64,000 nt of DNA from a virus (Duplodnaviria; Heunggongvirae; Uroviricota; Caudoviricetes): the IMG/VR virus record IMGVR_UViG_3300027917_000030; one strand, given 5' to 3'. Below are positions 6,598 through 58,420 of the stretch, piece by piece. Every line of letters starts with the position of its first letter. The first letter of the stretch is position 1. Below the pieces are notes generated by a model. The model had not been told where the DNA came from, ran no database searches, and worked only from the letters and a program-made list of their open reading frames with translations. The position numbers and the translations under genes are program-made.

Positions 6598-7263
6598 TTA
6601 TTTATAACCTCTTTCATATAACACCTTCTCAAACCCCTTATGCTGAGATCTTGCAAAAACAATCAAAAAGATAAATAAAACCAGCATCCACCACATACTA
6701 AACCACAAAGATACAAGTGCTCCAATACCTGATAATACATAAGAGGTTATCACTGCTATATTCATTGCTTTTTCAGGAGTGGCTTTAAAGGAAAGTAATG
6801 AATACAATACTCTGCCACCGTCAGATGGAAATAATGGTAATAAATTAAATATACAGAAGGCAACATTTATAATAAACAAATATGCAGTAAATGTACTCGG
6901 TAAAAGTATCCAGAAAATACTGCCGATAATTGCAAGAGCCAGTGATCCTCCTGGTCCAGCAAGAGCTACTTTAAGACCAGCCCGCCTGTCAAATAAAATC
7001 CTCTCAGAATCAATTAAAGCCCCTGCACCAAGCGCAAAAACCACAACCTTCTCTACATGCATTTTTTCAGAAATAGCCGCCCATACATGACAATATTCAT
7101 GAATAAGCAATGAAAACATAACCACCAAAAATAAAGCAATGCCCATTATACCTGCTTGTATAAGAAATAGAAACAATAGGATCAGTGCTGACCAATGAAA
7201 CTCGAGCGGAACCTGGAGAGCCCGTTTAAGACTTTTCACTTTTCTTTCCTTCCTCGTACCCAT
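6598..7263 (-). CDS. Membrane metalloprotease, M50 (site-2 protease) family
   Basis: Multi-TM protein with HEYCHVWAA (HExxH) in a TM helix and a downstream LLPLFPSDGG (LDG-like) motif. Confidence 0.6.
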   Translation of the reverse strand: MGTRKERKVKSLKRALQVPLEFHWSALILLFLFLIQAGIMGIALFLVVMFSLLIHEYCHVWAAISEKMHVEKVVVFALGAGALIDSERILFDRRAGLKVALAGPGGSLALAIIGSIFWILLPSTFTAYLFIINVAFCIFNLLPLFPSDGGRVLYSLLSFKATPEKAMNIAVITSYVLSGIGALVSLWFSMWWMLVLFIFLIVFARSQHKGFEKVLYERGYK

Positions 7264-8149
7264 CTACTTCTGGGACAGAAGATGGGGGTACATCTAATTG
7301 TTTAATGATAGCAAATAAAGTTGTTTTTTTACCACTTACATCAACGGCTGCGGCAAAATTGTGACCGCCACCGCCCATAACCTTAGCTAAGTCAGCCAAC
7401 TTGCCAGAATCAATAAGGTTTTGGTTGGATGTTCGTAACCTGGCTTTATTCATTCCATCTACCAAACATACATTTTCGTAATATCGAAATAACGTATCCA
7501 TTATTTCTGATACTACAATTTGATCCTGTTCGTCTACTTCCGCGATCATAAACCCATTACGACACTTATGAAGTTTAGCAGTTTTAAGTCCAAGTAATGC
7601 TTGGCTATATCTTATAGGTCTAATAGATGTTAAAATCTGTTGAGCCTTCTCATTGGTAATATTGAGTTTTCTTCCCACATCCATTATCTCATTCCACTCT
7701 CGCATAAAAAGAGTATCCGTATATAGCCCTACCAAAAGCACATCATCAATAATTCCAAAGTCTAGTGCTAAAATAGCAGCAGTAGAACATCTTTTTATAA
7801 CATAAATTTTCTTTCTGGGATTATGCTCATCAAGTCTGGTATCATGATGGTCTATACATATAAATGGTTCTTTAATTTCAAACCCAATTCTATCTTCCGA
7901 ATAACCTGAATCCAAAACAATTGTTTGTTCAATTTCAGGGATTTCTTTAGGTAAATCATCCTCAGATAAAATCCACGACAAGTGTTCAGGAATTGTACCC
8001 TCAACCTTCGCTACGGCAGTTTTACCATTTGAACGTAAGTGATTGAGAACTGCCTTAATTGAAGATAAAGAGTCCCCATCAGGATTCACATGTCCTACTA
8101 CCAATGAATCCTTCAGAGGTATTTTATATCTTGTCATAATTTCTCCCAA
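7226..8149 (-). CDS. DHH/DHHA1 phosphoesterase (NrnA-like nanoRNase/pAp phosphatase)
   Basis: GHVNPDGDSLSS, ICIDHHDT and the GGGGH DHHA1 motif. Confidence 0.7.
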   Translation of the reverse strand: MGEIMTRYKIPLKDSLVVGHVNPDGDSLSSIKAVLNHLRSNGKTAVAKVEGTIPEHLSWILSEDDLPKEIPEIEQTIVLDSGYSEDRIGFEIKEPFICIDHHDTRLDEHNPRKKIYVIKRCSTAAILALDFGIIDDVLLVGLYTDTLFMREWNEIMDVGRKLNITNEKAQQILTSIRPIRYSQALLGLKTAKLHKCRNGFMIAEVDEQDQIVVSEIMDTLFRYYENVCLVDGMNKARLRTSNQNLIDSGKLADLAKVMGGGGHNFAAAVDVSGKKTTLFAIIKQLDVPPSSVPEVDGYEEGKKSEKS

Positions 8150-8155
8150 AAAACT

Positions 8156-8422
8156 TTATCTTTCTAAGAGGAATCTTCTTACTTGCTCAGGATTAGCCCC
8201 TCCAGTAAGTCTATTAACAACTTCGTTTCCTCTTTTTAAAATAAGGGTAGGAATAGAACGGATACCGTACTCTCTGGCCATATCAGGATCTTCATCTACA
8301 TTTACCTCAACCAAATCTATATAATTTATATCTGACACTATATTTTTAATAATAGGTTCCATGGCTTTACAAGGAGCACACCACGGGGCCTTAAATGTCA
8401 TAAGAATCAGTTTTTCCATCAT
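8156..8422 (-). CDS. trxA: Thioredoxin
   Basis: 88 aa with WCAPCK active site (WCxxC) and a thioredoxin-like overall pattern. Confidence 0.85.
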   Translation of the reverse strand: MMEKLILMTFKAPWCAPCKAMEPIIKNIVSDINYIDLVEVNVDEDPDMAREYGIRSIPTLILKRGNEVVNRLTGGANPEQVRRFLLER

Positions 8423-8549
8423 TTGTTTTCGCTCTCTCCCAAAATTATATTTGTCTTAAGAACATTTTTGTACAGCATTATATTTACTTATTAATAGAAT
8501 TCAATTTGTTATTTTTCTTTAAATTTTAGGTATTTATATGACAGAAGTA

Positions 8550-8909
8550 TTATTTAGAAATGTATGTTTTTCCTATCTTTGGTATTGGTTCTTTATGTCT
8601 TTTTTCTACTTTAGGAACCTGTTTTTTAGGAGGTTTGTTTCTCTTTTTATCCTTAATTTTTACTCTACTATCACCTCGACACTTGCAGTCTGCACATGTA
8701 CCCATATCTCTTTGGTCTGGACCTATTGGACACTCTTTATATGCCATCCCATGATGCCATAAAATATAAGGTGATAGCGGACAAGAAAACTTTGGGGGTT
8801 TAGTAATATACTTAGGCATTCTTTCAGTTTCCACTATAACAGTTTCACCAGAAGAATACAATTGCTTCAACGATAAAGGATTCTTACTCATTTTTATCTC
8901 CCATGACAT
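8550..8909 (-). CDS. Hypothetical Cys-rich basic protein (119 aa)
   Basis: CP...C...CADCKCRG. It carries no signal peptide. Confidence 0.3.
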   Translation of the reverse strand: MSWEIKMSKNPLSLKQLYSSGETVIVETERMPKYITKPPKFSCPLSPYILWHHGMAYKECPIGPDQRDMGTCADCKCRGDSRVKIKDKKRNKPPKKQVPKVEKRHKEPIPKIGKTYISK

Positions 8910-9439
8910 TTCTTGAATTTTATGCGCTTACCATTAATAGTTTTTCCACAAGGGCAGGGATCATTTCTCCCAATCTTATTTTTACCTATAGCGCGGTCAG
9001 TAATTAAGATGCTATCTAAATGATCGCATTCGTGCTGCACCGCAATAGCCACCAACCCTGAAGCAACAAATCCAGCCGGATGAAGATCATCTTTTACGAA
9101 AACTTCTTTAAATCTATGTGTATTAAAACTTTCTCCAGGAAAACTTAAACACCCTTCATCAAAAAAGGTTGTTCCAAAACTCTGATCAATAATTTCAGGA
9201 TTCACTAAATCAACAAATTCTTTTGAATTTTCGTGAGAAATGCGAACTATTGCAACCCGCTTATGAATTCCTATTTGCGGGGCTGCAAGACCTATTCCCG
9301 GTTTATCAGAACTATCAAGAGCAGTTTCTAACTTATCTATAATACTCCGTGCCTCATATGGATCGATCCTGTCATTAGGCCTTCTCAACTCCTCAATATC
9401 AGTGATAATCTTCATAGGATTAGAAATTTTTTCAATCAT
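8894..9439 (-). CDS. def: Peptide deformylase with C-terminal SEC-C-like Zn motif
   Basis: GIGLAAPQIG, EGCLSFPGE and HECDHL are the three PDF motifs. The C-terminus NDPCPCGKTINGKRIKFKKCHGR resembles the SecA/YecA SEC-C metal-binding motif. Confidence 0.8.
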   Translation of the reverse strand: MIEKISNPMKIITDIEELRRPNDRIDPYEARSIIDKLETALDSSDKPGIGLAAPQIGIHKRVAIVRISHENSKEFVDLVNPEIIDQSFGTTFFDEGCLSFPGESFNTHRFKEVFVKDDLHPAGFVASGLVAIAVQHECDHLDSILITDRAIGKNKIGRNDPCPCGKTINGKRIKFKKCHGR

Positions 9440-9975
9440 TTCTTCTCCAAAGCAATGATCATAGTTATCGAGTTACCTTCAATGCGAGCGTTAGAATCTA
9501 TAACGAAAGGAACAGTCACCAGACTAATGAACTTCTCTAACATAGCCCTACCGGTATCCAGCATATGCTCTTGTTCCCTGCCACGAAAATAAACTGCCAA
9601 TTTAACCTTATCACCCTTTTCCATAAATTGCCCAGCACGCTTGGCTCTATACTTCAAATCATTATCGCCAGTTGTAGGTCGAAATTTTAGTTCTTTAATC
9701 TCCTGCCTATGGCTTTTGTTTTTCTTGTTCTTTTTTGATTGCTCATATTTCCATTTTCCCAAGTCCATAATGCGACAGACTGGAACTCCCTTAGAACCTG
9801 AACTAACTTCAACCAAATCTAAACCAACATTCTGAGCCTTATACAGGGCATCACTAATGTTAACATTACCAAAATTATTACCATTTTCATCAATAAGCAA
9901 CACGGTGCGTGCTCTAATCTTGTCATTTACATTATTATTCTGCATTGCTTGAAACTTCCTCCAACGCTTCCTCAA
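9436..9975 (-). CDS. infC: Translation initiation factor IF-3
   Basis: VLLIDENGNNFGNVNISDALYKAQNVGLDLVEVS...PVCRIMDLGKWKYE and a C-terminal domain typical of InfC. Confidence 0.85.
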   Translation of the reverse strand: MRKRWRKFQAMQNNNVNDKIRARTVLLIDENGNNFGNVNISDALYKAQNVGLDLVEVSSGSKGVPVCRIMDLGKWKYEQSKKNKKNKSHRQEIKELKFRPTTGDNDLKYRAKRAGQFMEKGDKVKLAVYFRGREQEHMLDTGRAMLEKFISLVTVPFVIDSNARIEGNSITMIIALEKK

Positions 9976-10621
9976 TCTGATCTACGATCTTTTTAGCCAC
10001 ATCTTCAGGATTAGGGGCTGTACGAATAGGTCTTCCAACTACAATTTTATCTGCTCCATCCAGAATCGCTTTTCTAGGAGTTATTATAACCCTTTGGTCG
10101 TGAACAGCATCTCCTTCTAATCTAATACCTGGCGTAATTAAAATAAAATTTTTCCCTACAACTTGCCTAACAGGCCGTAACATCGACCCTGGACAAATAG
10201 CCCCACTTGCTCCAGCATCTTTTGCGAGTAAAATATTATTCATAAAACGCGGCCGATCTCTTTCTGAAAATGCGGAACTCGTCAAGTGAGATACAGCCAG
10301 AATTTTTAGACTGGGCGTCACTTCTGTTGCTCGCCTAATAGCCTCGTCTGAATCAGCAAACACAGTTAAATATGAAGCACCAAATCCATTAACAACGGCT
10401 GCCGCATTTCCAACGGTATTTGGAATATCATGTAACTTGAGATCCAAAAATACCGGCACATAACCAGATAAAGATTTTACAATGTCGGAACCACACTTAA
10501 GAAACAATTCCAAACCGACTTTAAAAACGCCAACATATGGGTACAGTACTTGTACAAATCTACGAGCCTCACTTTTATCGTTAACATCCAACGCGAAAAT
10601 CAACCTATCTTTAGCCGACAT
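9935..10621 (-). CDS. pyrF: Orotidine 5'-phosphate decarboxylase
   Basis: LIFALDV, FKVGLELF and DLKLHDIPNTV. Confidence 0.8.
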   Translation of the reverse strand: MSAKDRLIFALDVNDKSEARRFVQVLYPYVGVFKVGLELFLKCGSDIVKSLSGYVPVFLDLKLHDIPNTVGNAAAVVNGFGASYLTVFADSDEAIRRATEVTPSLKILAVSHLTSSAFSERDRPRFMNNILLAKDAGASGAICPGSMLRPVRQVVGKNFILITPGIRLEGDAVHDQRVIITPRKAILDGADKIVVGRPIRTAPNPEDVAKKIVDQIEEALEEVSSNAE

Positions 10622-11600: not shown

Positions 11601-13208
11601 TTATGCAGTTGGAGGATCATTAGATTCTGTTGGATCATCTGCAACCATTGCTTCTGTGGTAATTAACATCGAAGCGACACTTGCAGCATTCTGTAGTGCA
11701 CACCTAACAACCTTTTTGGGATCAATAATACCAGCCGCAACAAGATCTTCATATTTACCCTGTGCTGCATTATATCCAAATTCCAGCCTATCTACATCCA
11801 AAATAGTTTGTTCAACAACATCAGGCTTATCGCCAGCATTCTCTACAATTTTCCTCAAGGGCGCTTTTAAACTATTAAGAATTATTTTGGCCCCCTCGCG
11901 CTCTCCTTTATCAAGTGTTTCTAGTAAGTTAAACACATCCTTAGCACATCTTAACAGTGCTACCCCGCCACCAGGTACAATTCCTTCCTCAACGGCGGCA
12001 CGAGTCGCATGTACAGCATCTTCAACCCTATCTTTCTTTTCCTTCATTTCTGGTTCAGTTGGTGCTCCAACTCTAATAACCGCCACACCACCAATTAATT
12101 TAGCCAATCTATCTTTCAACATCTTCCTATCATATTCGGAATCACAATGTTCAAGGTCTGCACGGATCTGAGAAGCCCTTTCTAAGATTGCTTCTTTCTT
12201 ACCGCCACCACCTACAATAGTTGTATTAGCCCTGTTCACAACAACTTTCCTGGCTTCACCAAGGTGAGATAGTTCAGCACGATCAAATGTCATACCAATA
12301 TCTTTGGAGAAAAGAGTTGCTCCTGTAAGAACACTAAGATCCTTGAGCATTTCTTTCCGTCGCTCCCCAAATCCAGGAGCCTTAATTGGGCAATTAAATA
12401 ACGCCCCGCGTAACTTATTTTGTATTAAGGTTGCCAACACTTTCTGACTGTAATCTTCCGCTATAATAAGAATGGGTTTGCCACTTTTCGAAACCTCCTG
12501 TAAGAGTGGTACAAGAGTTTCAATTTCTTCAAGTCTACCGTCAACAACCAGTACAAATGTTTCCGGGAGTTCCACAATACTTCTATCACCATCTGTAATA
12601 AAGTATGGTGTAATATAGCCTCTGTCAAATTGCATGCCATCCGACAGTTCCAAATATGTCTTAAGTGTTTGAGATTCTTCAATAGTGATTACGCCTTCTT
12701 TTCCAACCTTCTCCATGCCCTCCGCAATAAGTTTCCCGATCTGTTCATCGTTGGCAGAAATTGTTCCTACCTGAGCAATCTCTTCTGGATCTTGTGTAAG
12801 TTTTGTCATGTTGTTTAGAGTTTCCACTACAACATTGACAGCCCTATCAATACCCCTTTTTAAATCCACAGGATTATAACCTGCAGTTAATAATTGAAGA
12901 CCCTCGTTATAAATAGCCTGGGCCAAAACCGTTGCAGTTGTAGTCCCATCGCCCGCTTCATCGCAGGTCTTGGAAGCAGCAGTTTTTACCATCTGCGCTC
13001 CCATATCTTCAAACTGATCCTGCAAGAAGATCTCTTTTGCAATCGTTACCCCATCTCGTGTTACATGTGGTGCTCCCCACGACCTACGTAGTAGAACATG
13101 CCTACCTTTTGGACCCAAAGTAACACATACCGCATTTGTAAGTTTATCAACACCAGATTTTATTAGGGTCCTGGCTTCCGTATTATACTTAACAATTTTA
13201 CTAATCAT
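11601..13208 (-). CDS. groL: Chaperonin GroEL (Hsp60)
   Basis: 535 aa. GPKGRHVLL..GAPHVTRDGVTIAKEI, the AAVEEGIVPGGGVALL equatorial motif, and GDGTTTATVLAQA. It lacks the C-terminal GGM repeats, as phage GroELs often do. Confidence 0.9.
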   Translation of the reverse strand: MISKIVKYNTEARTLIKSGVDKLTNAVCVTLGPKGRHVLLRRSWGAPHVTRDGVTIAKEIFLQDQFEDMGAQMVKTAASKTCDEAGDGTTTATVLAQAIYNEGLQLLTAGYNPVDLKRGIDRAVNVVVETLNNMTKLTQDPEEIAQVGTISANDEQIGKLIAEGMEKVGKEGVITIEESQTLKTYLELSDGMQFDRGYITPYFITDGDRSIVELPETFVLVVDGRLEEIETLVPLLQEVSKSGKPILIIAEDYSQKVLATLIQNKLRGALFNCPIKAPGFGERRKEMLKDLSVLTGATLFSKDIGMTFDRAELSHLGEARKVVVNRANTTIVGGGGKKEAILERASQIRADLEHCDSEYDRKMLKDRLAKLIGGVAVIRVGAPTEPEMKEKKDRVEDAVHATRAAVEEGIVPGGGVALLRCAKDVFNLLETLDKGEREGAKIILNSLKAPLRKIVENAGDKPDVVEQTILDVDRLEFGYNAAQGKYEDLVAAGIIDPKKVVRCALQNAASVASMLITTEAMVADDPTESNDPPTA

Positions 13209-13713
13209 TTAAACCTCCAACTTTTAAACAATCTGGTAGAATACCATCATCTAATTTAGAAGTTTCGGAGTCAAAAGTCAATACATATTTGAACCCTTCT
13301 TCCATTTCTGGCACTTCAAGCCTACCATACATACCTTTCATTACCATATCTGGAACTTTCCTTGAGGGCTCGCGCGATGCGTTGCGTCGTATAGCCTCAT
13401 TAAAAGAAACACGACAATATAAAGCCACCACTTCTGCCCCATATTTCTGAGCCATCCTGATATATTTGCTACGCTTTTTCCGGCCCACAAAGGTAGCATC
13501 AAACACTATTAAACCTTCTTTGTTTATAAGTGCCTCTTTCAATGCTCTATCCGACTCTCTCCAAGCATTGCGTGCTACCTGAGGGGTCCATGGATTTTCT
13601 TTTGTATATCCTATTAAATCGTCTGGGCAGATTAAGACATCTGAGCGAATTTTGCTTCTTAAAGTTGTTTTACCCGAGCCTGGTATTCCGATCATTAAAA
13701 CTAGTACCGACAT
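13201..13713 (-). CDS. P-loop kinase (polynucleotide-kinase/AAA_33-like)
   Basis: VLVLMIGIPGSGKTTL Walker A within a 170-aa protein, in the size and shape of T4 Pnk kinase domain or zeta-like kinases. Confidence 0.5.
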   Translation of the reverse strand: MSVLVLMIGIPGSGKTTLRSKIRSDVLICPDDLIGYTKENPWTPQVARNAWRESDRALKEALINKEGLIVFDATFVGRKKRSKYIRMAQKYGAEVVALYCRVSFNEAIRRNASREPSRKVPDMVMKGMYGRLEVPEMEEGFKYVLTFDSETSKLDDGILPDCLKVGGLND

Positions 13714-13786: not shown

Positions 13787-15034
13787 TTATTTTTTAGTTA
13801 CACTGACACTAACCTCTTTAGCGGTCTTTGCTAAAAGCAGGCTAATCAAGTCTGTAGCAGCTGTCCCTTTTCCATTACTATTACCAATAACAGTCTGTGG
13901 GACAAGCGCACCGGGCTGGGCTTTAGCCAATGCCTGAGCATAATTCTTATGAATATTCTGAAGAGCTTTTAACTTGAGACTTAAAGCACCGTCAGCCTGC
14001 ATGATCAAACGCCTTTTTGCTGCTTCACCCTCACCACGAAGAATCTGAGCCTTCTTTTCCATAGCTGCTGCAGCAAGATCTAATTGAGCAACTTCCTTCT
14101 TCTTTTGTGCCTGAAGAACCGCCTCGGCTTTGTCGGCCTCAGCCTTTACAACACGCTTCGTTTTGGCAACCTCTTCAACAGCGCGAGTTTCAGCAATTTT
14201 CGCTTTCGCTTCAGCCTGAGCCTTTGAGGCGCGAGCTTCAGCCTGTTTAGCTTGAGCTTCCTGGGTAATAATATCCATACGCGCTTTTCTCTGAGTCTCA
14301 ATCTGATTTTTAACTGACTGAGAATATGTGATTTTGTCAATCACCAAGTTGGTAACACGAACTCCAAACTCGTGAAAAGCAGAAGGGTCGCGCCACAAAC
14401 CACCAATACAACTCTTATTATTTGAGGAACTACATCTCTTTTGTTCAAGAACCCAAACTTTCTTCATTTCGCCGGTAATAGGATCTGGCCGTGTTTCTTG
14501 CTTCTTTCGAACAAGAATAGTACCATTAACGAGCTGATCTTCTACCAAACTGGCAAACTCACCACGTCGAGCAGCATAACTTTCAGCAGCACTCATGTGT
14601 GGACCAGTAGTAAACAATGCCTTTCTTACAGCAGGAAGAACGAGTTTCTCTCTAACACCCCTAGCACTCTTAAACTTACGATGAAGTCTAATCAGATCTT
14701 CACAACTCGTGGGCAAAATAATCCGCACAGAACCAGACACTGATGCTGCTGCACCATCATTAAAACGAGTGGGAAGAGACTGATCACGCTTCTCTCCAGT
14801 TTCATGATCAGCGGTAAAAAAGAATGTGGTAGCCTCAGGGTATGTGTGAATATCCCCGAAAAACTGACCATACATACCAGGCTCAAGTCTACAAGTAAGA
14901 TTACCAGTAACAGCCGCCTGTTTTACCTGCAAATAACCAGCACTGTTAGTTTCAAAAAGTCCGCCCATACTCGCTATAAAAATCACCAAAAGTACAAAGG
15001 CAGCCGCCAGAGTAATAATGGTTTTAGTTTTCAT
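13787..15034 (-). CDS. SPFH/band-7 (HflK/C, prohibitin-like) membrane protein
   Basis: N-terminal TM, SPFH-like core, and a long Ala/Lys/Glu coiled coil (KAQAEAKAKIAETRAVEEVAK...). Confidence 0.65.
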   Translation of the reverse strand: MKTKTIITLAAAFVLLVIFIASMGGLFETNSAGYLQVKQAAVTGNLTCRLEPGMYGQFFGDIHTYPEATTFFFTADHETGEKRDQSLPTRFNDGAAASVSGSVRIILPTSCEDLIRLHRKFKSARGVREKLVLPAVRKALFTTGPHMSAAESYAARRGEFASLVEDQLVNGTILVRKKQETRPDPITGEMKKVWVLEQKRCSSSNNKSCIGGLWRDPSAFHEFGVRVTNLVIDKITYSQSVKNQIETQRKARMDIITQEAQAKQAEARASKAQAEAKAKIAETRAVEEVAKTKRVVKAEADKAEAVLQAQKKKEVAQLDLAAAAMEKKAQILRGEGEAAKRRLIMQADGALSLKLKALQNIHKNYAQALAKAQPGALVPQTVIGNSNGKGTAATDLISLLLAKTAKEVSVSVTKK

Positions 15035-15410
15035 TTTTTCTCTCCTGCAATTCCTGTTCTAAAAGTTTATATTCACCAAGTACCGAATCTTCACTGGAAT
15101 TTTGTAGTAGTCTTTTCAGTTCTATTACATCAACATTAGCATTTTCTAATTCAGCCCTAACAGATGGAGATTCCAAAATTCTTGCCGCCTGATCCCGTTC
15201 AATTAATTTTAATTGAATAGATCTCTCGCGATCCCTAATTTGCTTAACTCTTTCTTTTTGTTCAATCGAACCTACAGTCATGATATTACTAAGTAACTTC
15301 TCTCTCTCTTTCCTATCCTTGTCTTCTAAATATTGTCTATAAACTTTAGGGCCAACGATGGACCCAATAAATACTACAGAAAATAAAACAAACAAAACAA
15401 TCAATGTCAT
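15024..15410 (-). CDS. Membrane-anchored coiled-coil protein (128 aa)
   Basis: N-terminal TM helix followed by a charged helical segment. Confidence 0.35.
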   Translation of the reverse strand: MTLIVLFVLFSVVFIGSIVGPKVYRQYLEDKDRKEREKLLSNIMTVGSIEQKERVKQIRDRERSIQLKLIERDQAARILESPSVRAELENANVDVIELKRLLQNSSEDSVLGEYKLLEQELQERKNEN

Positions 15411-18241: not shown

Positions 18242-18498
18242 ACCTTTTCTTTTAGAGATTTAATGTGTACAAGAAGTGCTTTATGCCTCTTGCTATCTGG
18301 CATAATACCTTGTGTCTTGTCAATTTCAACCTTTTTATTCTTTTGTAATTTATAGCGCTTTTTATCCTGCTCGTGAAGTTTAAGAAGTTTCTCCATCTTC
18401 TTTTCACACTTTTTAATTTCTGCGTTAATGCGCCTCAATCTATTTGACTCCGTATTCCGTATTTTAATTTTATTGCTTTTTCCTTTACCCTTGGCCAT
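18238..18498 (-). CDS. Small basic coiled-coil protein (86 aa)
   Basis: Lys/Arg-rich helical ORF. Confidence 0.35.
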   Translation of the reverse strand: MAKGKGKSNKIKIRNTESNRLRRINAEIKKCEKKMEKLLKLHEQDKKRYKLQKNKKVEIDKTQGIMPDSKRHKALLVHIKSLKEKV

Positions 18499-49335: not shown

Positions 49336-50066
49336 TTTTGTCCTATGTCTGGTTTGGAGTCGTCATAAACTCTGTGAGCCTTGACTTGAACAATTTCCAT
49401 TTCAGGATAGCGTAACGATGTTAAATGTCCACCAAAAACACAACCCGTGTCAATCCCGTAAGTTCCGTTTAAAATACGAGGCTCTCTGTACGGCTGATGC
49501 CCGTACACTATAATTGGTTCTGTTTCCTTCCTATCAATTACCCAATCAATACGATCAGGTAGCCCATTAGGTAAGGTCTTGCCTGTGGTAGGAGCATACA
49601 AGCACCATGACCTACACTTCTTATCGAAGGGATCTTTATCCTTTAAACCACTGTGCCAAGCCCCATGAACGGCGATTAACTTTCCTTCATCAAGTAGGTG
49701 GTACATAGGCATGTTACGCAAAAAATTGTAAACTTCCTGCTTGGAAGTAAACAACTTTATCTCTTCTACAGTTTTATCCAGCCCGTGATTTAGAACTACA
49801 TTGTTTCCCTTTGCCCAACGCATGAGCTTATCATCATGATTGCCGCGTGCTAGTAATGCAAAGTCTGCTCGCACCATATTTCTCACCGTACAGAACACAA
49901 CGCCAGATGCTCGCCCACGGTCAATTAAATCACCAAGGAAAACTGCCTTCCTACCTTTAGGGGGGTTATAAACCATGCCAAGTTTTGCTTGCTCATAACC
50001 AAGCTTTTCTAACAGCAAGTGAAGTTCATAAGCACATCCGTGAATATCTCCAATGATGTCATACAT
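49332..50066 (-). CDS. PPP-family metallophosphatase (lambda-phosphatase/ApaH-like)
   Basis: GDIHGCAYEL, FLGDLIDRG and RGNHD are the GDxHG/GDxxDRG/GNHE signature. Confidence 0.7.
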   Translation of the reverse strand: MYDIIGDIHGCAYELHLLLEKLGYEQAKLGMVYNPPKGRKAVFLGDLIDRGRASGVVFCTVRNMVRADFALLARGNHDDKLMRWAKGNNVVLNHGLDKTVEEIKLFTSKQEVYNFLRNMPMYHLLDEGKLIAVHGAWHSGLKDKDPFDKKCRSWCLYAPTTGKTLPNGLPDRIDWVIDRKETEPIIVYGHQPYREPRILNGTYGIDTGCVFGGHLTSLRYPEMEIVQVKAHRVYDDSKPDIGQK

Positions 50067-50234: not shown

Positions 50235-51314
50235 TTAGAAATTAAGCGGATCTTCACAATATTGTCCAGGCATCAATTGCGTTCTACGGATAATTTCCTC
50301 AGCATCAAGTTCATGCATACCTACAACACCAGCCCTAACAGTCTTTTCGTGGACCATAGTGGCTATGGCTGCTACAGTATATCCTGTTGCCTGCGACATC
50401 GCTGAGAATCCAGTGTCACCATCATACTCCCAATAGAACTCCCGTGAAGCCTGAGTATCAAACCCATAAAGACGCACACACAAAATAATCACATCTGGAT
50501 TATCCGGACCAACTTCTTCCAGCATACCATCTAATGTTGCTATCGGATCGGGCTGGCTGAGAATATACTTTTCCAAGTACTCCATATGTCCTGGATATCT
50601 TAAAGTTTTATAACTCAGATTCTTGAGTTTTAAATGTTCTGGTGCAACTGAAAGCCCGCCAGAAGTAACCACAGCCTCTAGTACGCCAAACCCTGGAATA
50701 AACAAAAGTTCCTTGTTACTACGGGCTGGAACATTTACAAGTTTACCATCTCGGATTTCTTGAGCCAATCCGCTAAATTCCTTGATAACTCCAGCAGGAT
50801 AAAACATCTTGCTATAACTTAAAGGGAGTTTGGGAAACTTAGGAATTCCCCCACAAAAGATTTCAATGGAGTCCCAACCCTCTCTCTGATAAAAGCCAGC
50901 CAAAGATGCAACAATGCCTGGAGCCAAACCACAATCTGGAATTATAGTAACCCTGCGCGTTAGAGCCTCAATCTCCTCCTGGAATTGTTGTTTCACTATA
51001 GAAGTAACGCCTCCCAAGTCAACCATATTCCAACCATTCGCTATACATGTTCTGGTAACAGAAAGATTGTATTCAGTCGGCAGGCAACTGATAAGAGTTA
51101 GATTACCAAACTTATCTAAAAGGTCCATTTCCCAACCAGGCCCATGCCAATACTCCAGACGGTCATAATCAGCCCTATGTTTATATTGGTTCGCAATTTT
51201 TTCAGGAAGTGATTTTTTCAGATCAACAATCGTAATATCTTCTTTAGTTTGTGTCATAAGATAGTGCAGAATAGCCTGCCCCTGGATGCCAAGACCACCT
51301 AAAATTAAATACAT
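50235..51314 (-). CDS. Saccharopine-dehydrogenase-like NAD(P)-binding oxidoreductase (possibly carboxynorspermidine/lysine dehydrogenase-like)
   Basis: N-terminal LILGGLGIQGQAIL Rossmann motif and PDCGLAPG. Confidence 0.4.
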   Translation of the reverse strand: MYLILGGLGIQGQAILHYLMTQTKEDITIVDLKKSLPEKIANQYKHRADYDRLEYWHGPGWEMDLLDKFGNLTLISCLPTEYNLSVTRTCIANGWNMVDLGGVTSIVKQQFQEEIEALTRRVTIIPDCGLAPGIVASLAGFYQREGWDSIEIFCGGIPKFPKLPLSYSKMFYPAGVIKEFSGLAQEIRDGKLVNVPARSNKELLFIPGFGVLEAVVTSGGLSVAPEHLKLKNLSYKTLRYPGHMEYLEKYILSQPDPIATLDGMLEEVGPDNPDVIILCVRLYGFDTQASREFYWEYDGDTGFSAMSQATGYTVAAIATMVHEKTVRAGVVGMHELDAEEIIRRTQLMPGQYCEDPLNF

Positions 51315-52666
51315 AACTCTTCTCCATATTCTGTTTCCAATTTGGAAAGCATTTCATCAATTGACATTTGAGTCGTGATTTGCCCATCCAATAACATCTG
51401 ATCCAGCCTATCCTTAATAATACCCACTTTTGGTCCAGGAGAAACCTCGAATCTTTTCATAATCCTCTCGCCAACACCCTTTGGTAATTTAGGGCGAAGA
51501 TCTTCTTCTCGCATATTTCCTAAGGCTTCCTTCAAAAGGCGTGCATGTGCCTGTTGCCTTTCCTGAATGCTCTTTTTCTTCGAGGAACAATCGGCTGCAA
51601 ACAGATCGATCAGATCGTCAATTGAACAATGCCTTTCTTCACAGTCCCTAACCAATCGGCGCAAAGCGTTCTTACTAACGGGCGGATCGTTTCTTCTGGT
51701 TACAATATCCCCAATCCGCTGATGTAAAGCAACAAGACCAATAATTGCACTGGATTGTTCATTGGACATTTTCAACCGTCTCGTTAACCCTTGGACGATT
51801 TCCGCCCCCAAATATTCGTGCTGAAAAAAATGAACTTCCCTTTTATCTTCAAATCGAGTTTGTGGCTTTGCAACATCGTGTAGCAAAGCAGCCCAGCGTA
51901 GATTCAACCTGGAAGAAGTGCCTCCAACCACCTTTTTAGTGTGTAGCCAAAGATCTTTACTGGGTAAATTGCCGTCACTTTTTAGTGTAATTGGAAATAG
52001 TTCTGGCAAAATATAACCAAGCAGTCTGGTTTGATATAACAGTTCCAGACCTTTGACAGCATGTTGCCCAAGCAAGAGTTTATTCATTTCCTCCAACCAC
52101 CGCTCACGACTTACCGACATTATTGCATGTGCGAAGGAACAAAGGATAGACTTGGTGTGCTTGTGCAGATTAAATCCCAACTGAGAAACAAACCTTACAG
52201 CACGCAGCATTCTGAGCGGGTCCTCTCCAAAGCGACTTGCTGGAGAGCCCGTAGTTTTGATCAGCCTATTAGCCAAATCTTTAGCACCATTAAACGGATC
52301 GATAAGGCTGCCCTTCTCATCCATGGCAATACTATTTATCGTGAAGTCGCGTCGCTCCAAATCTGTTTTTAAATTTGTAGTAAAGGAAACCTCTGGATGC
52401 CGACCTGCAGTCATATCCTTACGATGGGTGGTGATCTCTACTTCCATACCGTCTACAAAGGCCGCTATCGTCCCAAATTTTTCTCCTAATGGCCAGTGTT
52501 TAAAGCCATTGGTTTCTAGAATTCTTTGCGTATCTTGTGGCAAAGCATCGGTCGTAAAATCATAATCTTTAGGCTCTCTGCCCAAAAGTACATCTCTGAC
52601 AGATCCACCAACATGGTATAGTTTTTTATTATTTTTACGGAAGGCTTCGAATAATCCCTCAAACAT
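51305..52666 (-). CDS. cca: CCA-adding enzyme / tRNA nucleotidyltransferase with HD domain
   Basis: GGSVRDVLLGREPKDYDFTTDA (head domain), RDFTINSIA, and a C-terminal HD motif (ALLHDVAKP). The start was trimmed to MFEGLFEAF to avoid overlap with the CYTH gene. Confidence 0.8.
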   Translation of the reverse strand: MFEGLFEAFRKNNKKLYHVGGSVRDVLLGREPKDYDFTTDALPQDTQRILETNGFKHWPLGEKFGTIAAFVDGMEVEITTHRKDMTAGRHPEVSFTTNLKTDLERRDFTINSIAMDEKGSLIDPFNGAKDLANRLIKTTGSPASRFGEDPLRMLRAVRFVSQLGFNLHKHTKSILCSFAHAIMSVSRERWLEEMNKLLLGQHAVKGLELLYQTRLLGYILPELFPITLKSDGNLPSKDLWLHTKKVVGGTSSRLNLRWAALLHDVAKPQTRFEDKREVHFFQHEYLGAEIVQGLTRRLKMSNEQSSAIIGLVALHQRIGDIVTRRNDPPVSKNALRRLVRDCEERHCSIDDLIDLFAADCSSKKKSIQERQQAHARLLKEALGNMREEDLRPKLPKGVGERIMKRFEVSPGPKVGIIKDRLDQMLLDGQITTQMSIDEMLSKLETEYGEELCI

Positions 52667-52667: not shown

Positions 52668-53171
52668 TTACTCTCCAATAAGACCTCCAACATATTTGAG
52701 GCCATCCCGTGCCAGACTATAATTGGAAAATCCTTCATGCTCTGTAACCTCTGCCCCAAGCCAAGATGGAATAAGAAAGGCGTCATCCTCGTGAAATAGT
52801 TCTATCTCCGCCATAATCAATCCATCCAGAGGTCCTTGAAACACATCAACTTCCCATCTATTCCCAACATCACAGGATGATTCGCTTAAATCTATGGTAT
52901 ATCGTATTTTGTGGAGTTCAAATGCACAAACATCGCGCATTAAAATTAGAGCCTCCTCCGTTTTAATTGGAACATTGATCTCCAATCTTTTTCGCATATT
53001 TTTATCAAGAGGCTTACTCTTAATGGTAAGTTCGGCTCCGCGTGAAATCCTAACACGAACGCAAGCATTTTCCGCAGGAATATACCCTTGCGAAATTGGC
53101 TCTACGTGAAGAGGTGGTATGGATCTCCATCCGTCGGAAGCAACCAAAAATTTTCTTTCAATTTCGTACAT
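52668..53171 (-). CDS. CYTH-domain protein (triphosphate tunnel metalloenzyme)
   Basis: N-terminal EIERKFLV signature and downstream acidic EIELF-type motifs. Confidence 0.6.
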   Translation of the reverse strand: MYEIERKFLVASDGWRSIPPLHVEPISQGYIPAENACVRVRISRGAELTIKSKPLDKNMRKRLEINVPIKTEEALILMRDVCAFELHKIRYTIDLSESSCDVGNRWEVDVFQGPLDGLIMAEIELFHEDDAFLIPSWLGAEVTEHEGFSNYSLARDGLKYVGGLIGE

Positions 53172-54355: not shown

Positions 54356-54637
54356 TTAGTCCCCTTCTTCTGTAATAACTCCATGAATATCTTCAACATC
54401 TACTAAGACGAGATCTTTAGAAAGCCCCAATCCAACTACTTTCCCCAACTCTGTTGGGAAAACTACAATGTGTCCAAGATAACTTTCCATCACGATATCT
54501 GGATCACACTCTACTACTGACCCTTTTGAGTAGTAAGGCTTGTCATCTTCGACTACCATAAATCCGCCAGTGTCTTTTTCTTTCTCACCTTGTACCAACT
54601 TCACAAGGATTTTCGAACCAACAGGTGAAAGTTTCAT
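54356..54637 (-). CDS. groS: Co-chaperonin GroES (Hsp10)
   Basis: 93 aa, MKLSPVGSKILVKL...GEKEKDTGGFMV...GSVVECD, a typical GroES pattern. Confidence 0.8.
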   Translation of the reverse strand: MKLSPVGSKILVKLVQGEKEKDTGGFMVVEDDKPYYSKGSVVECDPDIVMESYLGHIVVFPTELGKVVGLGLSKDLVLVDVEDIHGVITEEGD

Positions 54638-54646: not shown

Positions 54647-56200
54647 TTAAAAAGTTCTAAAAGCAGTTCGAATCTGTTCGTATAATAGATCTGAACTTGT
54701 TGTAATATCAAGTGGGATCATTTCCTCAGAGAAAGATGAGGCACCCATCTTCCCGTCAACCAGATCCATATACATGCTAAAAGCACCCTCTTCTTTGTGA
54801 ACGAATATATCCTTCACTCCCTCCGCAGCCAATTCGGTTTCAAAATTATTAGCAAGTGGCGTATCAATTGAAATGTTTGGACACCTATTCCGTTCTCTCA
54901 ATTCCACAATCCTATCAATCCAATCGCTATAATCTCCCTTAGAACGATGGCGCCCTCTGCCAGTTTGCTTGTAATCTAACAGCACGATATCCATCCCATG
55001 ATGATAGGCAGTCTCCAACATTCTCGTGAAGTTATAGTAGGCTACTCCCATCACATAATGTATAACGGGACGCCTGATGCGATTTCCACAATAGACCTTC
55101 AAATAAGCAGCAAGTTCATCTACATCACGCGGACATTCGGTCGAATAAGCAAATGTACCAATGCTATCCAGGATTCTCTCACGCTTTTTATCATCCTTAA
55201 GCCACGAAAGATTCCTGGTAGAAAAATTGGGAGTAATTCCGCTTCTTTTTAGGTCTTCCAAAAATTCGATAAAGTTGGGGTGTTGGGTTGGCTCGCCACC
55301 ACCAATCGCCACCTCAAACACCTTAAGTCTACTCAAAGCATTTGATAGTGCCCATATGTTTCCAGAAGAAAGATCAGCATGTTCTCCCTTCTCGGAAGAT
55401 CCCTGATAGCAAAACGAACATCCTCTTTCACAGTAATCCGTTATCTTTATATCAATGAGGTCTGGCGTAGTAGAGTACTCTGGGTGTAGCACACCTGCTG
55501 TTATTTGACCACTCCACCTCTTCTCAACATCCTTGAGATTTTTCGGAAAAGTCATACGAAGTTTGCCGCCAGTGTTTTTGTTAAATAGTGTCCAGAAACC
55601 CTGCGGATCCTTCTTTGCAATCCAGTTTTTACTAACTCCATCTATATCTATATTCAATACAAAAGCGGTACCATTATCCAAAGGATGTTTTTCACCATCG
55701 TTATCATTACCGCCCAAGATTACAAGATTCCTATTAAGCATAAATTCGCTAAATTCTTTGACAAACTCGTAATCCAACCCATTACCATGCCAGTTATATG
55801 GCAGAGCGTAAACGCTTTGGTGGTCAATATATCCTTCTTTAGACCAGTTCCATGATTTAGTGCCACAGCGTTTGCCAACTAATTGCTGTGTAACGATTGC
55901 TGCTGTTTCCTTATCTACATGTTCTTCAAGAGCAACACCTATGACACTCGCTATATAGGCACGCTTTGTTGAGTCAGAAGCAGCAACAAAGTGATCCCAT
56001 CCAAACTCCAAGTCTTCAACACCTTCATCTTTTTCGTTATACAAAAATATTAAGGAATGGGTTGAACTACTATTAGTTGCAAATCCCAGTCTTATGTTGT
56101 GAATCCTCATCCCTTTTTTCCTTCTTATCGGTGGTCGTGGAAACCTTCTTAGCCTCCTCACGCTTTTTTTGTAATTCTCTTTCATCCACCATTTCACCAC
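54647..56200 (-). CDS. Radical SAM protein with a large unknown N-terminal domain
   Basis: CERGCSFC (CxxxCxxC) about 250 aa in, followed by the GGE motif AIGGGEPT. There is no SPASM-type Cys cluster. The true start may be the internal MRIHN. Confidence 0.6.
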   Translation of the reverse strand: MVKWWMKENYKKSVRRLRRFPRPPIRRKKGMRIHNIRLGFATNSSSTHSLIFLYNEKDEGVEDLEFGWDHFVAASDSTKRAYIASVIGVALEEHVDKETAAIVTQQLVGKRCGTKSWNWSKEGYIDHQSVYALPYNWHGNGLDYEFVKEFSEFMLNRNLVILGGNDNDGEKHPLDNGTAFVLNIDIDGVSKNWIAKKDPQGFWTLFNKNTGGKLRMTFPKNLKDVEKRWSGQITAGVLHPEYSTTPDLIDIKITDYCERGCSFCYQGSSEKGEHADLSSGNIWALSNALSRLKVFEVAIGGGEPTQHPNFIEFLEDLKRSGITPNFSTRNLSWLKDDKKRERILDSIGTFAYSTECPRDVDELAAYLKVYCGNRIRRPVIHYVMGVAYYNFTRMLETAYHHGMDIVLLDYKQTGRGRHRSKGDYSDWIDRIVELRERNRCPNISIDTPLANNFETELAAEGVKDIFVHKEEGAFSMYMDLVDGKMGASSFSEEMIPLDITTSSDLLYEQIRTAFRTF

Positions 56201-56273: not shown

Positions 56274-56597
56274 TCACTCGCATACGGTGGCTGTTAGAAT
56301 GTCACAATTCTCATCTCTTGTGTCCAGAAAGAAACATTGCTTTACAACATCCTTTCCGCTCGCACAATAGGGGTTCTCTCTCTGAAAACCAATTTCCATT
56401 TCAGGATCACCACCCCAACATTGGCATGGTAATACCATAGACTTACTTACCATTGGTCCTGGAGGCGGAGGAAAACTTTCACACTTTTCTTTCCAGCAAA
56501 AACCAAATAAACCTTCGCAATCCGAGTTGTAAATACACTCTGGATCGCTACCACACGATACAAAAATAATAGCGAATAAAACCAACAGTTTACTCAT
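56274..56597 (-). CDS. Secreted Cys-rich small protein (107 aa), paralog 1
   Basis: Signal peptide, then 12 Cys with the spacing CIYNSDC..G.C..(K)C...P..C.CWGGD...C.SG.D.V..C. Confidence 0.5.
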   Translation of the reverse strand: MSKLLVLFAIIFVSCGSDPECIYNSDCEGLFGFCWKEKCESFPPPPGPMVSKSMVLPCQCWGGDPEMEIGFQRENPYCASGKDVVKQCFFLDTRDENCDILTATVCE

Positions 56598-56710
56598 TTT
56601 CCTCTTCCTCCTCTAACTCTTCCAAGTAATCTTGGGTTCTGAGTTTTCGTTGCCTCTTATCTTTGCGATCTTTATGAGGTCCAGCCTTACCATACTGGTT
56701 GTTTTCTTTT

Positions 56711-57586
56711 CTACTCTGTCGCTTTAGGGCTTTGATCTTGTCGAACTTCTTGTCTTTCTTCATCTTTACACTCGGGCATAAGAATTTGGGACAACCAATC
56801 TCTACCATATTCGCTGGTAAAAATTGGTGCAGCACTATCTTCCCATCGCCGACGCTCCGCCGTCCCATTTTCCGTGGTTACAGTAATCCAATTACGGTAT
56901 GCTACAATTCCTCTTTTAAACTCGGCGGGATAATTGTTCCAATTAACACCAGCCTCAGAAAATAACAACTCTTGTTGCTGATCTTGATTCTTCTTATGCA
57001 TCATCTTTCTGGCGGTACCTTTGCCCACAATCCTACCAACCTCATAATAACAAGCACTACTAATAGAATTCTTAACACAATCTCTCTGTCTCCAGATCAA
57101 ATTGTTCACTACTTCCATCATGCTGGGCATCGGCCAGACGCGACAATCAAAAAATGCTACTCCAGCCCTTTTTGGTTTGGAAAAATCATCAAGGATTACC
57201 TCACCATTTTCATCTTTAAGAACAGGGATAAAATGATTAAATGTGGCTGCCGCTACACTTGCTGCTACAGATACAATTTTTTGAACTCTATTATCAAACC
57301 AAGGGGTAGTTTCTTCGGTTTGATCAGATCTAATTGCAAATGTAATCTCATCTGACTGAGTATAAGCCAGCATACAACCCTGCATCTCACTTGCAACACG
57401 CTTGGCTGTTTCGGTCATCCAAGAAGAGAAACAAATATCATACGGTTTAGCAAGTTTCAATCTTTTTGTCAAGGTGCTAAAGGCTTTTCCATCGATGCGC
57501 ACCATGATCGGTGCACGAGGAATGATCTTAAAATTCGTTGATTCCTCGTATCGCTTCATCCTGTCGCCAAGTGATTCTTTATTCAT
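56711..57586 (-). CDS. Thg1-like protein (tRNA-His guanylyltransferase family, 3'-5' polymerase)
   Basis: IMVRIDGKAFSTLTKRL.LAKPYD and AYTQSDEITFA match the Thg1 signatures VVRLDGRNFHRF..KPND and AYGQSDEYSF. Confidence 0.7.
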   Translation of the reverse strand: MNKESLGDRMKRYEESTNFKIIPRAPIMVRIDGKAFSTLTKRLKLAKPYDICFSSWMTETAKRVASEMQGCMLAYTQSDEITFAIRSDQTEETTPWFDNRVQKIVSVAASVAAATFNHFIPVLKDENGEVILDDFSKPKRAGVAFFDCRVWPMPSMMEVVNNLIWRQRDCVKNSISSACYYEVGRIVGKGTARKMMHKKNQDQQQELLFSEAGVNWNNYPAEFKRGIVAYRNWITVTTENGTAERRRWEDSAAPIFTSEYGRDWLSQILMPECKDEERQEVRQDQSPKATE

Positions 57587-57930
57587 TTTTTCTCTGCCTT
57601 AGCCTCATCCACAAATGCTCTAATTTTGTCTACAGAACCACTTTTTTCCAAAAGTGCTATCCGACGCTCAGCGTCTTTGACTGCACGAGCCCGCATCTCG
57701 GCAACCTCTTCCTCGGACATCCTCTCGAGTTTCATTAAGTACATCGTCATCTCTTCTGCAGCCTGAAGTGCCGCCTGAGTTGACTCCCTTCCCTCAAGAC
57801 CAGCCTGAAGTCCCAGGGAAGAGGCATATATGGACAGTGCACTGGCCAGACCATCAATAACTTCTTCTTTTTTAGGTGGTTGCGTGTAATCCTCTACAAC
57901 TATTTTACCCATGACTTTCTTCCTTTTCAA
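57583..57930 (-). CDS. Hypothetical coiled-coil protein (115 aa)
   Basis: Ala/Glu/Leu-rich helical ORF. Confidence 0.3.
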   Translation of the reverse strand: MKRKKVMGKIVVEDYTQPPKKEEVIDGLASALSIYASSLGLQAGLEGRESTQAALQAAEEMTMYLMKLERMSEEEVAEMRARAVKDAERRIALLEKSGSVDKIRAFVDEAKAEKK

Positions 57931-58420
57931 AAAGAGATTCCAGATAACGCCACATCTTTATGATGCGTTTGTCTTTTTCCGTAGCATCATGTAGTTCTGC
58001 TTCAAATGTCGGCCACTCGCGCTCATACATTTTAACGAAGTTAGTGTTAGATCCCTTACTAAATTCTATATTAGCGATCCTATCAGCCAGTTTAATAATC
58101 AAACCAGGTCTGTTGGCTTTTATCTTTGGGTATGTTTTAGCATACCTTTCCTTTCTGTTACGCCCCATTTCGTTGGTTACGGCATAAACAACATCAGCTA
58201 CATTTTCGCCAAACCCGTGCTTCAATTTGTCGTAGGAAATGCCCGTATCTTCAATCACATCATGAAGCCAGGCAGCGATCTTAAGTTGTTCATCATGGAA
58301 CCCAAACCTATTGAGTACCATTTCCACTTGTTGCAAATGGTAAGTGTAACTGTGAGTTCCATATCTTTGGCCATAATGCACCAAAGCCGCAAATCTTTTA
58401 GCAAACTCATAATCTTCCAT
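57905..58420 (-). CDS. HD-domain hydrolase of the RelA/SpoT (ppGpp hydrolase, small alarmone hydrolase) type
   Basis: H..H early, then IAAWLHDVIEDT, the hallmark HD motif of SpoT/Mesh1 hydrolases, plus a downstream Asp. Length 171 aa. Confidence 0.65.
   Translation of the reverse strand: MEDYEFAKRFAALVHYGQRYGTHSYTYHLQQVEMVLNRFGFHDEQLKIAAWLHDVIEDTGISYDKLKHGFGENVADVVYAVTNEMGRNRKERYAKTYPKIKANRPGLIIKLADRIANIEFSKGSNTNFVKMYEREWPTFEAELHDATEKDKRIIKMWRYLESLFEKEESHG

Follow-up and report, generated by a model that had tools for sequence, protein, structure and literature searches.

The virus record IMGVR_UViG_3300027917_000030 (IMG/VR; Caudoviricetes) carries a broad set of RNA-end repair and tRNA-maintenance enzymes, analysed here over a stretch of 64,000 nucleotides, termed the window. 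The set combines two RNA ligase types, a candidate polynucleotide kinase (PNK), a Pnkp-type phosphatase, RlaP, a CCA-adding enzyme and a Thg1-like enzyme, possibly joined by an alarmone or 3'-pyrophosphate hydrolase and a macro domain, which places the window among the fuller kits of this kind. Its most probable function is to heal and seal tRNA damaged by host defences, a reading to which we assign a probability of roughly 0.65. Bacteria commonly cleave tRNAs or modify tRNA ends as a last line of defence, and the repair kits of phages are the matching counter-measure. The kit concept and most component combinations are already published, and the window is a good example of them, not a new type of system.

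All eleven enzymes named in a first-pass annotation of this DNA are present on the minus strand, as judged by Pfam, NCBIfam, phrog, PDB and Foldseek comparisons. A functional link within the core set is suggested because its gene order is conserved in relatives, two of its families seem to share contigs, and unrelated cultured phages cluster the same families. The candidate components and the small open reading frames (ORFs) among them are as follows, with lengths in amino acids (aa).

35462-36640, minus strand: T4 Rnl1-family RNA ligase, 392 aa (Pfam RNA_lig_T4_1, 47 bits, cutoff 28)
47376-47978, minus strand: minimal RNA-ligase-type nucleotidyltransferase ("mini-Rnl", here mini-ligase), 200 aa (Pfam RNA_ligase, a marginal 30.3 bits, cutoff 27)
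13201-13713, minus strand: PNK/PSTK-like P-loop kinase, 170 aa, candidate 5'-OH polynucleotide kinase (AAA_33 68 bits, KTI12 40 bits)
49332-50066, minus strand: Pnkp-type binuclear metallophosphoesterase, 244 aa, predicted 2',3'-cyclic-phosphate/3'-phosphate healer (PDB 4J6O, E=1e-55, full length)
39326-40600, minus strand: RlaP, RNA-ligase-associated Pol-beta nucleotidyltransferase, 424 aa (Pfam RlaP PF10127, 65 bits, cutoff 23; phrog_388, 213 bits)
51305-52666, minus strand: class II CCA-adding enzyme with HD domain, 453 aa (PolyA_pol 114, PolyA_pol_RNAbd 61, HD 34 bits)
56711-57586, minus strand: Thg1-like 3'-5' nucleotidyltransferase, 291 aa (Pfam Thg1 114 bits, Thg1C 40 bits)
57905-58420, minus strand: HD_4 (RelA/SpoT-type) small alarmone hydrolase-like protein (Pfam HD_4 40 bits; spoT_relA 55 bits; phrog_990 133 bits)
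52668-53171, minus strand: CYTH (triphosphate tunnel) protein (Pfam CYTH 31 bits, cutoff 23; phrog_6660 58 bits)
37708-38523, minus strand: second calcineurin-like phosphoesterase (Metallophos 46 bits; TIGR03729 46 bits, below cutoff; phrog_1649 72 bits)
48311-48871, minus strand: macro domain of the ALC1/TARG1/Poa1p-like class (PDB 2AFC, 3.5e-31)
7226-8149, minus strand: DHH/DHHA1 NrnA-like phosphoesterase, a doubtful member (Pfam DHH 35 bits; GGGH motif)
48868-49335, minus strand: orf155, 155 aa, between phosphatase and mini-ligase (no Pfam hit)
47979-48314, minus strand: orf111, predicted membrane protein of 111 aa (two hydrophobic segments; no family hit; 0-nt gap to the mini-ligase)

Under the repair reading, host anticodon nucleases or other tRNA-damaging effectors would leave 2',3'-cyclic-phosphate and 5'-OH ends, or trimmed ends. 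The Pnkp-type phosphatase would convert the cyclic phosphate or 3'-phosphate to a 3'-OH, the kinase would phosphorylate the 5'-OH, and RlaP would restore one to two lost nucleotides at the 3'-OH. Rnl1 would then seal breaks in the tRNA anticodon loop, while the minimal Rnl2-like ligase would probably seal nicks in duplex RNA. Separately, the CCA enzyme with its HD domain would rebuild 3'-CCA ends and the Thg1-like enzyme 5' ends. The HD_4 protein may, more speculatively, remove the 3'-pyrophosphate left by toxSAS/CapRel-type defences or degrade alarmones.

Ligases, candidate healing enzymes and tRNA-end enzymes

The Rnl1-family ligase matches the T4 Rnl1 structure 2C5U at E=7e-5, although identity to T4 Rnl1 is only ~26%. 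Its KEDGSL motif sits on the T4 Rnl1 motif I lysine (T4 residues 99-105), and FEYVAP, EGVVV and KIKS are also in register. A match to phrog_562 (110 bits, residues 46-376) carries the annotation "RNA ligase and tail fiber protein attachment catalyst". Over the C-terminal part, which in Rnl1 holds the domain that gives tRNA specificity, tblastn alignment to T4-like RnlA covers residues 100-392, and the PDB alignment ends at 315.

The mini-ligase aligns only to positions 3-247 of the 341 in phrog_548 ("RNA ligase"). The residues of motifs I, III, IV and V (K21-LDGSN, FAEFWG, EGVVGK and K175-A-K177) do not vary among 37 homologues. PDB searches with this protein, by sequence and by profile, returned nothing significant, and its fold was assessed from an AlphaFold2 model (predicted local distance difference test score 94.5) compared with PDB by Foldseek. 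The top 23 matches are RNA ligases (T4 Rnl2, archaeal Rnl3, Naegleria Rnl5, T4 Rnl1 and TbREL1); T4 Rnl2 ranks first at 5.5e-7, with similar scores for Rnl3, Rnl5 and Rnl1. The Pnkp ligase 3TY5 appears only at rank 39 (E=0.016). The first-pass annotation had named in advance the outcome that would speak against it, namely reassignment of the ligase-like ORFs to DNA ligases or capping enzymes. That assignment was rejected: RNA ligases hold the top Foldseek ranks, DNA ligases score more weakly, and no capping enzyme lies near the top.

The protein stops at residue 200, so that the Rnl2-type C-terminal domain is absent. Its family contains 808 clusters at 50% identity, nearly all of 195-220 aa and stand-alone, and among 50,697 phage records it occurs in 20: four uncultured phages of 485-642 kb, XacN1, and Lak phages. 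The mini-ligase belongs to a discrete family which, among catalogued phages, is confined to huge phages.

The phosphatase retains the motifs GDIHG, GDLIDRG and GNHD. Its full-length PDB match, 4J6O, is the phosphatase domain of C. thermocellum Pnkp. The NCBIfam model bacter_Pnkp (TIGR04075) scores 245 bits at positions 182-420 of its 851, against a whole-protein cutoff of 750, and identity is 49% to the phosphatase part of a Treponema kinase-phosphatase fusion of 426 aa. In these comparisons the phosphatase is nearest to RNA-repair Pnkp and to kinase-phosphatase fusions, not to protein phosphatases.

The kinase contains a GIPGSGKT P-loop, and one Asp aligns with the general base of Pnkp. Its best PDB match is PSTK (3e-9), followed by the CthPnkp kinase (3.5e-4) and T4 PNK (2e-3). 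The kinase region of bacter_Pnkp gives 41 bits, and phrog_505 ("polynucleotide kinase") matches at E=2.6e-12. For the second phosphoesterase, whose gene is positioned between those of Rnl1 and RlaP, the PDB sequence search was empty and yielded no informative relative.

Among the tRNA-end enzymes, the NCBIfam model for CCA tRNA nucleotidyltransferase is the best match to the CCA-adding enzyme at 321 bits (equivalog cutoff 439). The start at 52666 matches independent gene calls, and the ORF could reach 52786. The CYTH gene lies directly upstream, with a gap of 1 nt. The Thg1-like protein carries the RIDGKAF and QSDE carboxylate motifs. Domain scores of the CCA, Thg1-like, CYTH, RlaP and DHH proteins all exceed their Pfam cutoffs.

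The RlaP gene is 2.7 kb from that of Rnl1 and 6.8 kb from the mini-ligase gene. RlaP adds one to two nucleoside monophosphates to damaged RNA 3' ends and is required for repaired tRNA to regain aminoacylation; for the Pseudomonas RlaP, addition of lost 3' nucleotides has been demonstrated (Carruthers, Fatma & Huang 2025, PMC12776372). The window protein likewise belongs to PF10127 and is encoded in the same gene arm as RNA ligases, but it is a 424-aa phage form with an inserted segment relative to the phrog/Pfam model, and its activity is a prediction.

The HD_4 protein was not named in the first-pass annotation, although its gene is the last one within the range covered there. One small ORF separates its gene from that of Thg1, with overlapping junctions. 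toxSAS/CapRel defences place 3'-pyrophosphate on tRNA CCA ends (10.1101/2021.04.30.441581; PMC9712102), and HD_4 is a possible additional part for tRNA 3'-end repair.

Gene order and relation to known repair systems

The order Thg1-CCA-phosphatase-orf155-mini-ligase-RlaP is kept at 43-70% identity in two related metagenomic phage contigs, L002 (154.6 kb, ERZ15185488) and L006 (144.6 kb, SRR31558124), with Thg1 in L002 only, within the 20 kb fetched. CCA orthologues in both are 57-59% identical to the window protein and RlaP orthologues 49%, so that the association of RlaP with the ligase is conserved; the L002 Thg1 orthologue is 52% identical. Phosphatase orthologues of 53-55% identity occur in L002, L006 and a further locus, L003. 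L002 also carries two tandem RlaP paralogues at 17493-20603 (49% and 27% identical to the window RlaP), where the window has one.

Most of the intervening window genes have no detectable homologue in L002 or L006. Across the 39-58 kb stretch, tblastn against L002 found 5 of 7 kit genes retained, compared with 4 of 17 others (Fisher p=0.04). The match lists of the mini-ligase and the phosphatase include contigs of equal size in at least 12 pairs (for instance 91,229; 144,596; 305,730; 441,904; 75,640; 316,473), some of them huge-phage contigs of 300-460 kb such as GCA_902730225.1. Equal sizes in both lists suggest shared contigs, and co-location was seen directly in L002, L003 and L006. Judged from these comparisons, the kit is a conserved trait of an uncultured large-phage lineage.

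Near the mini-ligase, overlaps of 4 nt join phosphatase, orf155, macro and orf111, and orf111 abuts the mini-ligase. Homologues of orf155 adjoin the phosphatase in L002 (46%) and L006 (43%); the one in L007 (27%) precedes the mini-ligase, 0.7 kb upstream of it. A homologue of another small ORF, orf104, adjoins the phosphatase in L003. A search of a 5.8-billion-protein set with orf155 gave only 2 matches, because this ORF evolves too fast for the word index. The repeated linkage of a minimal ligase restricted to huge phages with a stand-alone Pnkp-type phosphatase and fast-evolving, conserved small ORFs is mildly novel.

A more specific proposal, which we hold tentatively and consider rather unlikely, is that the run phosphatase-orf155-(macro)-small membrane ORF-mini-ligase-orf104 represents a disarticulated heal-and-seal machine of huge phages. 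In it, the mini-ligase, devoid of any substrate-binding C-terminal domain, would rely on orf155 and/or orf104 to adenylylate and seal RNA, and in this phage the macro domain inserted in the run would also clean RNA ends of ADP-ribose ahead of ligation. Such reliance would be analogous to the dependence of the Pnkp ligase on Hen1 in the Pnkp/Hen1 system. If true, the mini-ligase would represent a new family of minimal RNA ligases that need an activator acting in trans.

The component families are individually rare in the 50,697 phage records: Thg1 occurs in 162, Rnl1 in 128, RlaP in 272, CCA in 506 and the Pnkp-type phosphatase in 25, the last always at 27% identity or less. Caulobacter phage records appear in the lists for Thg1, Rnl1, RlaP and CCA, which were compiled per family; Lak phages appear in those for Thg1, CCA and the mini-ligase. 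The first-pass annotation had considered the pairing of Thg1 and CCA enzymes with two ligase types unusual. The rarity of each family agrees with this view, but the combination is documented, both in Vibrio phage D181 and in the survey by Iyer, Anantharaman, Krishnan, Burroughs & Aravind 2021 (Viruses 13:63, PMC7824862).

That survey describes jumbo-phage repair kits with combinations of Rnl1, Rnl2 and RtcB, PNK, phosphoesterases (a minority of them calcineurin-like), Macro, RlaP mirroring the ligases, CCA and sporadic Thg1. It also notes IF3 and PARP in a few jumbo phages and sets out the heal-and-seal counter-defence model. The window shares these component families and the proposed logic and unites nearly all of the families at once. 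It differs in its stand-alone bacterial-Pnkp-type phosphatase, where the published kits mostly have a HAD phosphatase, in the minimal 200-aa form of its second ligase, and in that RtcB, KptA, 2H and PTH2 were not found in the window.

Vibrio phage D181 (OZ196140.1) is cultured and unrelated, yet a 12-kb stretch of it encodes CCA, a hydrolase, RlaP, Thg1, an Rnl1-type ligase, PNK and a phosphoesterase, and a CYTH homologue (32%) lies 5 kb upstream of CCA. Identity to the window proteins is 30-32% for its RlaP, CCA, Thg1 and CYTH, whereas its Rnl1 and PNK are too divergent to match at E=1e-3. The D181 cluster is compact in comparison with the 51-kb spread in the window, and it is without the mini-ligase, the Pnkp-type phosphatase and the macro domain. 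PVP-SE1/KB57-like myoviruses carry a CCA-RlaP-hydrolase cluster of the same families. Both examples were found by tblastn with the concatenated kit, which ranks records by their best local cluster and not by the number of parts.

With the T4 system, in which Pnkp and Rnl1 repair PrrC-cleaved tRNA-Lys, the window shares the Rnl1 motif I lysine, a C-terminal region that tblastn aligns to T4-like RnlA, and the heal-then-seal logic. T4 Pnkp, however, fuses a kinase to a HAD phosphatase, whereas in the window healing would fall to a separate kinase and a calcineurin-type phosphatase. Compared with the C. thermocellum Pnkp/Hen1 system, the window has a phosphatase closely homologous to the phosphatase domain of Pnkp and a kinase distantly homologous to its kinase domain. 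The Pnkp domains are fused, while those of the window are unfused and unlinked, with the kinase gene 36 kb from the phosphatase gene and a ligase that is not of Pnkp type. As for a Hen1 partner, the window methyltransferases at 15407-15880 and 22423-23034 match only generic SAM-methyltransferase models and non-Hen1 structures. The parts also have practical value as compact enzymes, namely a 200-aa ligase and a 244-aa stand-alone Pnkp-type phosphatase, and the window offers a test case for their joint action.

Weighing the repair reading against its rivals

Several observations weigh against a dedicated repair pathway. Around 14 candidate genes are spread over 51 kb (7.2-58.4 kb), with some 80 unrelated genes interspersed, and the repair genes are not one operon: the tight junctions were considered as a sign of a dedicated operon, which was rejected, since the whole arm is equally tight. 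The enrichment of kit genes in synteny is modest, with a bias to enzymes whose length makes them easy to detect. PSTK/KTI12 are the closest matches to the kinase, which is without the Arg of the Pnkp D-x-x-R element and whose gene stands beside that of GroEL, 22-36 kb from the ligases. The mini-ligase is without the domain that T4 Rnl2 reportedly needs for RNA adenylylation. The PrpE (Ap4A hydrolase) model gives 200 bits over the full length of the phosphatase. Pfam, PDB and model scans of the window found none of Hen1, RtcB, KptA, 2H or PTH2. Finally, the results here establish which families the proteins belong to, that their catalytic motifs are intact, that the genes are tightly packed and that relatives keep their order, and the pathway is drawn wholly from family biochemistry.

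The annotation's picture of a comprehensive heal-and-seal system therefore stands in part. It fits the published jumbo-phage model (PMC7824862), but the parts are dispersed over 51 kb, and nothing ties four of them specifically to RNA repair (DHH, macro, CYTH and the phosphoesterase at 37708-38523); for these four, roles outside repair are equally good.

The macro domain illustrates this ambiguity. Pfam Macro matches it below threshold (E=0.2), whereas solved macrodomains match clearly (SCO6735 5e-29, CHD1L 7e-9, yeast Poa1p 1e-5), as does phrog_335 (113 bits). Macrodomains can clean ADP-ribosylated RNA ends (PMC6582358, PMC11833690), and the window protein could do so too. Its role in RNA repair is nonetheless unproven, because the characterised homologue SCO6735 cleaves thymidine-linked ADP-ribose on DNA, reversing DarT-type modification (PMC9411070), and the phage has a PARP of its own. 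For the DHH protein, the best PDB match is the NrnA-like TmPDE TM1595 (6.5e-9). A thioredoxin gene (8156-8422) adjoins it and an APS kinase gene (4950-5480) is nearby, which suggests PAPS/pAp metabolism as an alternative context; the protein is no less likely to turn over pAp or nanoRNA than to take part in RNA repair.

Extended to the whole set, this line of thought yields the strongest rival, in which no integrated system exists and the window holds a grab-bag of independent auxiliary genes, several "repair" parts having other jobs. Here the phosphatase would, like PrpE, act on Ap4A or dephosphorylate proteins, the kinase would have a small-molecule substrate, and Rnl1 would serve in tail-fibre attachment like T4 gp63. 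The macro domain would reverse DarT-type DNA ADP-ribosylation or the products of the phage's own PARP, DHH would degrade pAp, nanoRNA or dinucleotides, and HD_4 would hydrolyse (p)ppGpp or (p)ppApp. The PrpE score is compatible with this, given the same 244-aa architecture, and ApaH matches too; so are the tail-fibre wording of phrog_562, the DNA activity of SCO6735, a weak DarG match, the presence of PARP, nicotinate phosphoribosyltransferase (NAPRTase) and NAD synthase, and the position of DHH next to thioredoxin and near APS kinase. Macro and CYTH are, moreover, missing from the syntenic block in both L002 and L006. However, Thg1, CCA, phosphatase, mini-ligase and RlaP keep their order and co-occur across relatives, and the same families form a tight cluster in unrelated phages. 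The phosphatase also scores higher as Pnkp than as PrpE, and the cellular proteins nearest to it carry a PNK-type kinase in the same chain. On balance, we give a mere assortment of unconnected genes a minor share of the probability.

A further rival concerns the making of tRNAs. The enzymes could serve biogenesis and not repair, maturing the phage's own tRNAs, encoded beyond the window, for phage-biased translation together with IF3, bS21 and peptide deformylase. The first-pass annotation had invoked a tRNA cluster, which the window does not contain: ARAGORN and Rfam scans recovered one tRNA gene and two degenerate remnants.

498-584, minus strand: tRNA-Tyr (GTA anticodon), CCA encoded, the sole bona fide tRNA gene in the window (ARAGORN; Rfam tRNA 50.7 bits)
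413-481, minus strand: tRNA-like remnant beside tRNA-Tyr (Rfam tRNA 16 bits)
3471-3558, minus strand: tRNA-like remnant overlapping the start of ORF 3206-3583 (Rfam Tymo_tRNA-like 29 bits)

The tRNA-Tyr gene falls outside the range 7226-58420 to which that annotation referred. Both remnants have perfect T-arms, defective acceptor stems and scores below threshold, which suggests tRNA genes in decay or tRNA-like elements. Under relaxed settings ARAGORN made 40 calls, mostly spurious, with real T-arms only at these two places. A cluster beyond the window edge was sought with exact 50-mers in the JGI metagenome and IMG/VR collections, without a match, and beyond the window start by protein look-ups, which gave nothing or one 1.8-kb contig.

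In favour of biogenesis, the canonical role of Thg1 is the addition of G-1 to tRNA-His, and IF3, peptide deformylase and bS21 are encoded in the same arm. Huge phages are also commonly rich in tRNAs (PMC7824862). Yet the sole intact tRNA of the window already encodes its CCA, so that the CCA enzyme is unneeded for its maturation, a point that counts for repair. Bacterial-type tRNA-His, for its part, normally encodes G-1, and ligases, Pnkp-type phosphatase, PNK-like kinase and RlaP play no part in normal bacterial tRNA maturation. Biogenesis is accordingly less probable than either repair or a set of unrelated genes.

The suggestion that the phage encodes split tRNAs whose halves the kit would join is very improbable: the two remnants are its sole support, look decayed and have no identified complementary partner, a permissive Rfam scan of the entire window found no half-tRNA matches, and neither a splicing endonuclease nor RtcB was found.

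Gene content of the surrounding arm

The window is best explained as part of the auxiliary, host-takeover arm of a large or huge uncultured phage, with the genes in one direction and the repair set scattered through it. All plausible genes lie on the minus strand, GC content is ~0.40, and GC skew is negative throughout the 64 kb. A megablast of 23 kb against the 50,697 phage records gave zero matches, and no catalogued phage is alike at the DNA level. An IMG/VR scan with the phosphatase as a single-protein query found zero relatives. Identical proteins are present on the metagenomic contig ENA ERZ27279932 (59 kb) and on a 91-kb JGI contig.

Pfam scans covered ~95 ORFs. The scattered repair genes are hosted among ~95 same-strand genes that include chaperones, NAD/ADP-ribose metabolism, a ubiquitin-like system and translation factors. 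The assignments below are by Pfam unless noted.

8894-9975 and 23189-23479 (within), minus strand: peptide deformylase, IF3 (both domains) and ribosomal protein bS21
11601-13208, minus strand: GroEL
54356-54637, minus strand: GroES
19732-20184, minus strand: Hsp20
33119-35452, minus strand: full-length Lon
18568-19290, minus strand: trypsin-like protease
6598-7263, minus strand: M50 peptidase
13787-15034, minus strand: SPFH protein
16763-18241, minus strand: protein with WGR, PARP regulatory and PARP catalytic domains, 492 aa, of eukaryote-like architecture
23743-25098, minus strand: NAPRTase (same arm as PARP)
46160-47107, minus strand: NAD synthase (same arm as PARP)
25526-26377, minus strand: ThiF-type E1
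26380-27408, minus strand: JAB-domain protein
27410-28144, minus strand: prokaryotic E2 family D protein
4950-5480, minus strand: APS kinase (215 bits)
8156-8422, minus strand: thioredoxin
3879-4943, minus strand: amidohydrolase
5616-6209, minus strand: phosphoribosyltransferase
9935-10621, minus strand: orotidine 5'-monophosphate (OMP) decarboxylase
43460-46163 (including PP2C), minus strand: 619-aa protein with weak protein-kinase/RIO similarity (E ~0.05-0.1), overlapping the start of the PP2C gene
50235-51314, minus strand: saccharopine-dehydrogenase-like enzyme, its gene sharing 10 nt with the CCA gene at the latter's 3' end
54647-56200, minus strand: radical-SAM protein, 517 aa, between GroES and Thg1

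In the survey by Iyer et al. 2021 (PMC7824862), only a handful of jumbo phages have PARPs of the WGR-PARP kind. The GroES gene lies 41 kb from that of GroEL. The genes for E1, JAB and E2 are adjacent (25526-28144) and form a ubiquitin-like conjugation and deconjugation set in a phage, while the amidohydrolase, phosphoribosyltransferase and OMP decarboxylase may represent a partial set for pyrimidine biosynthesis. The saccharopine-dehydrogenase-like and radical-SAM genes, which here stand between kit genes, are missing from the syntenic blocks of L002 and L006. The huge-phage mini-ligase loci L003 and L007 likewise carry PP2C together with a DnaJ-kinase.

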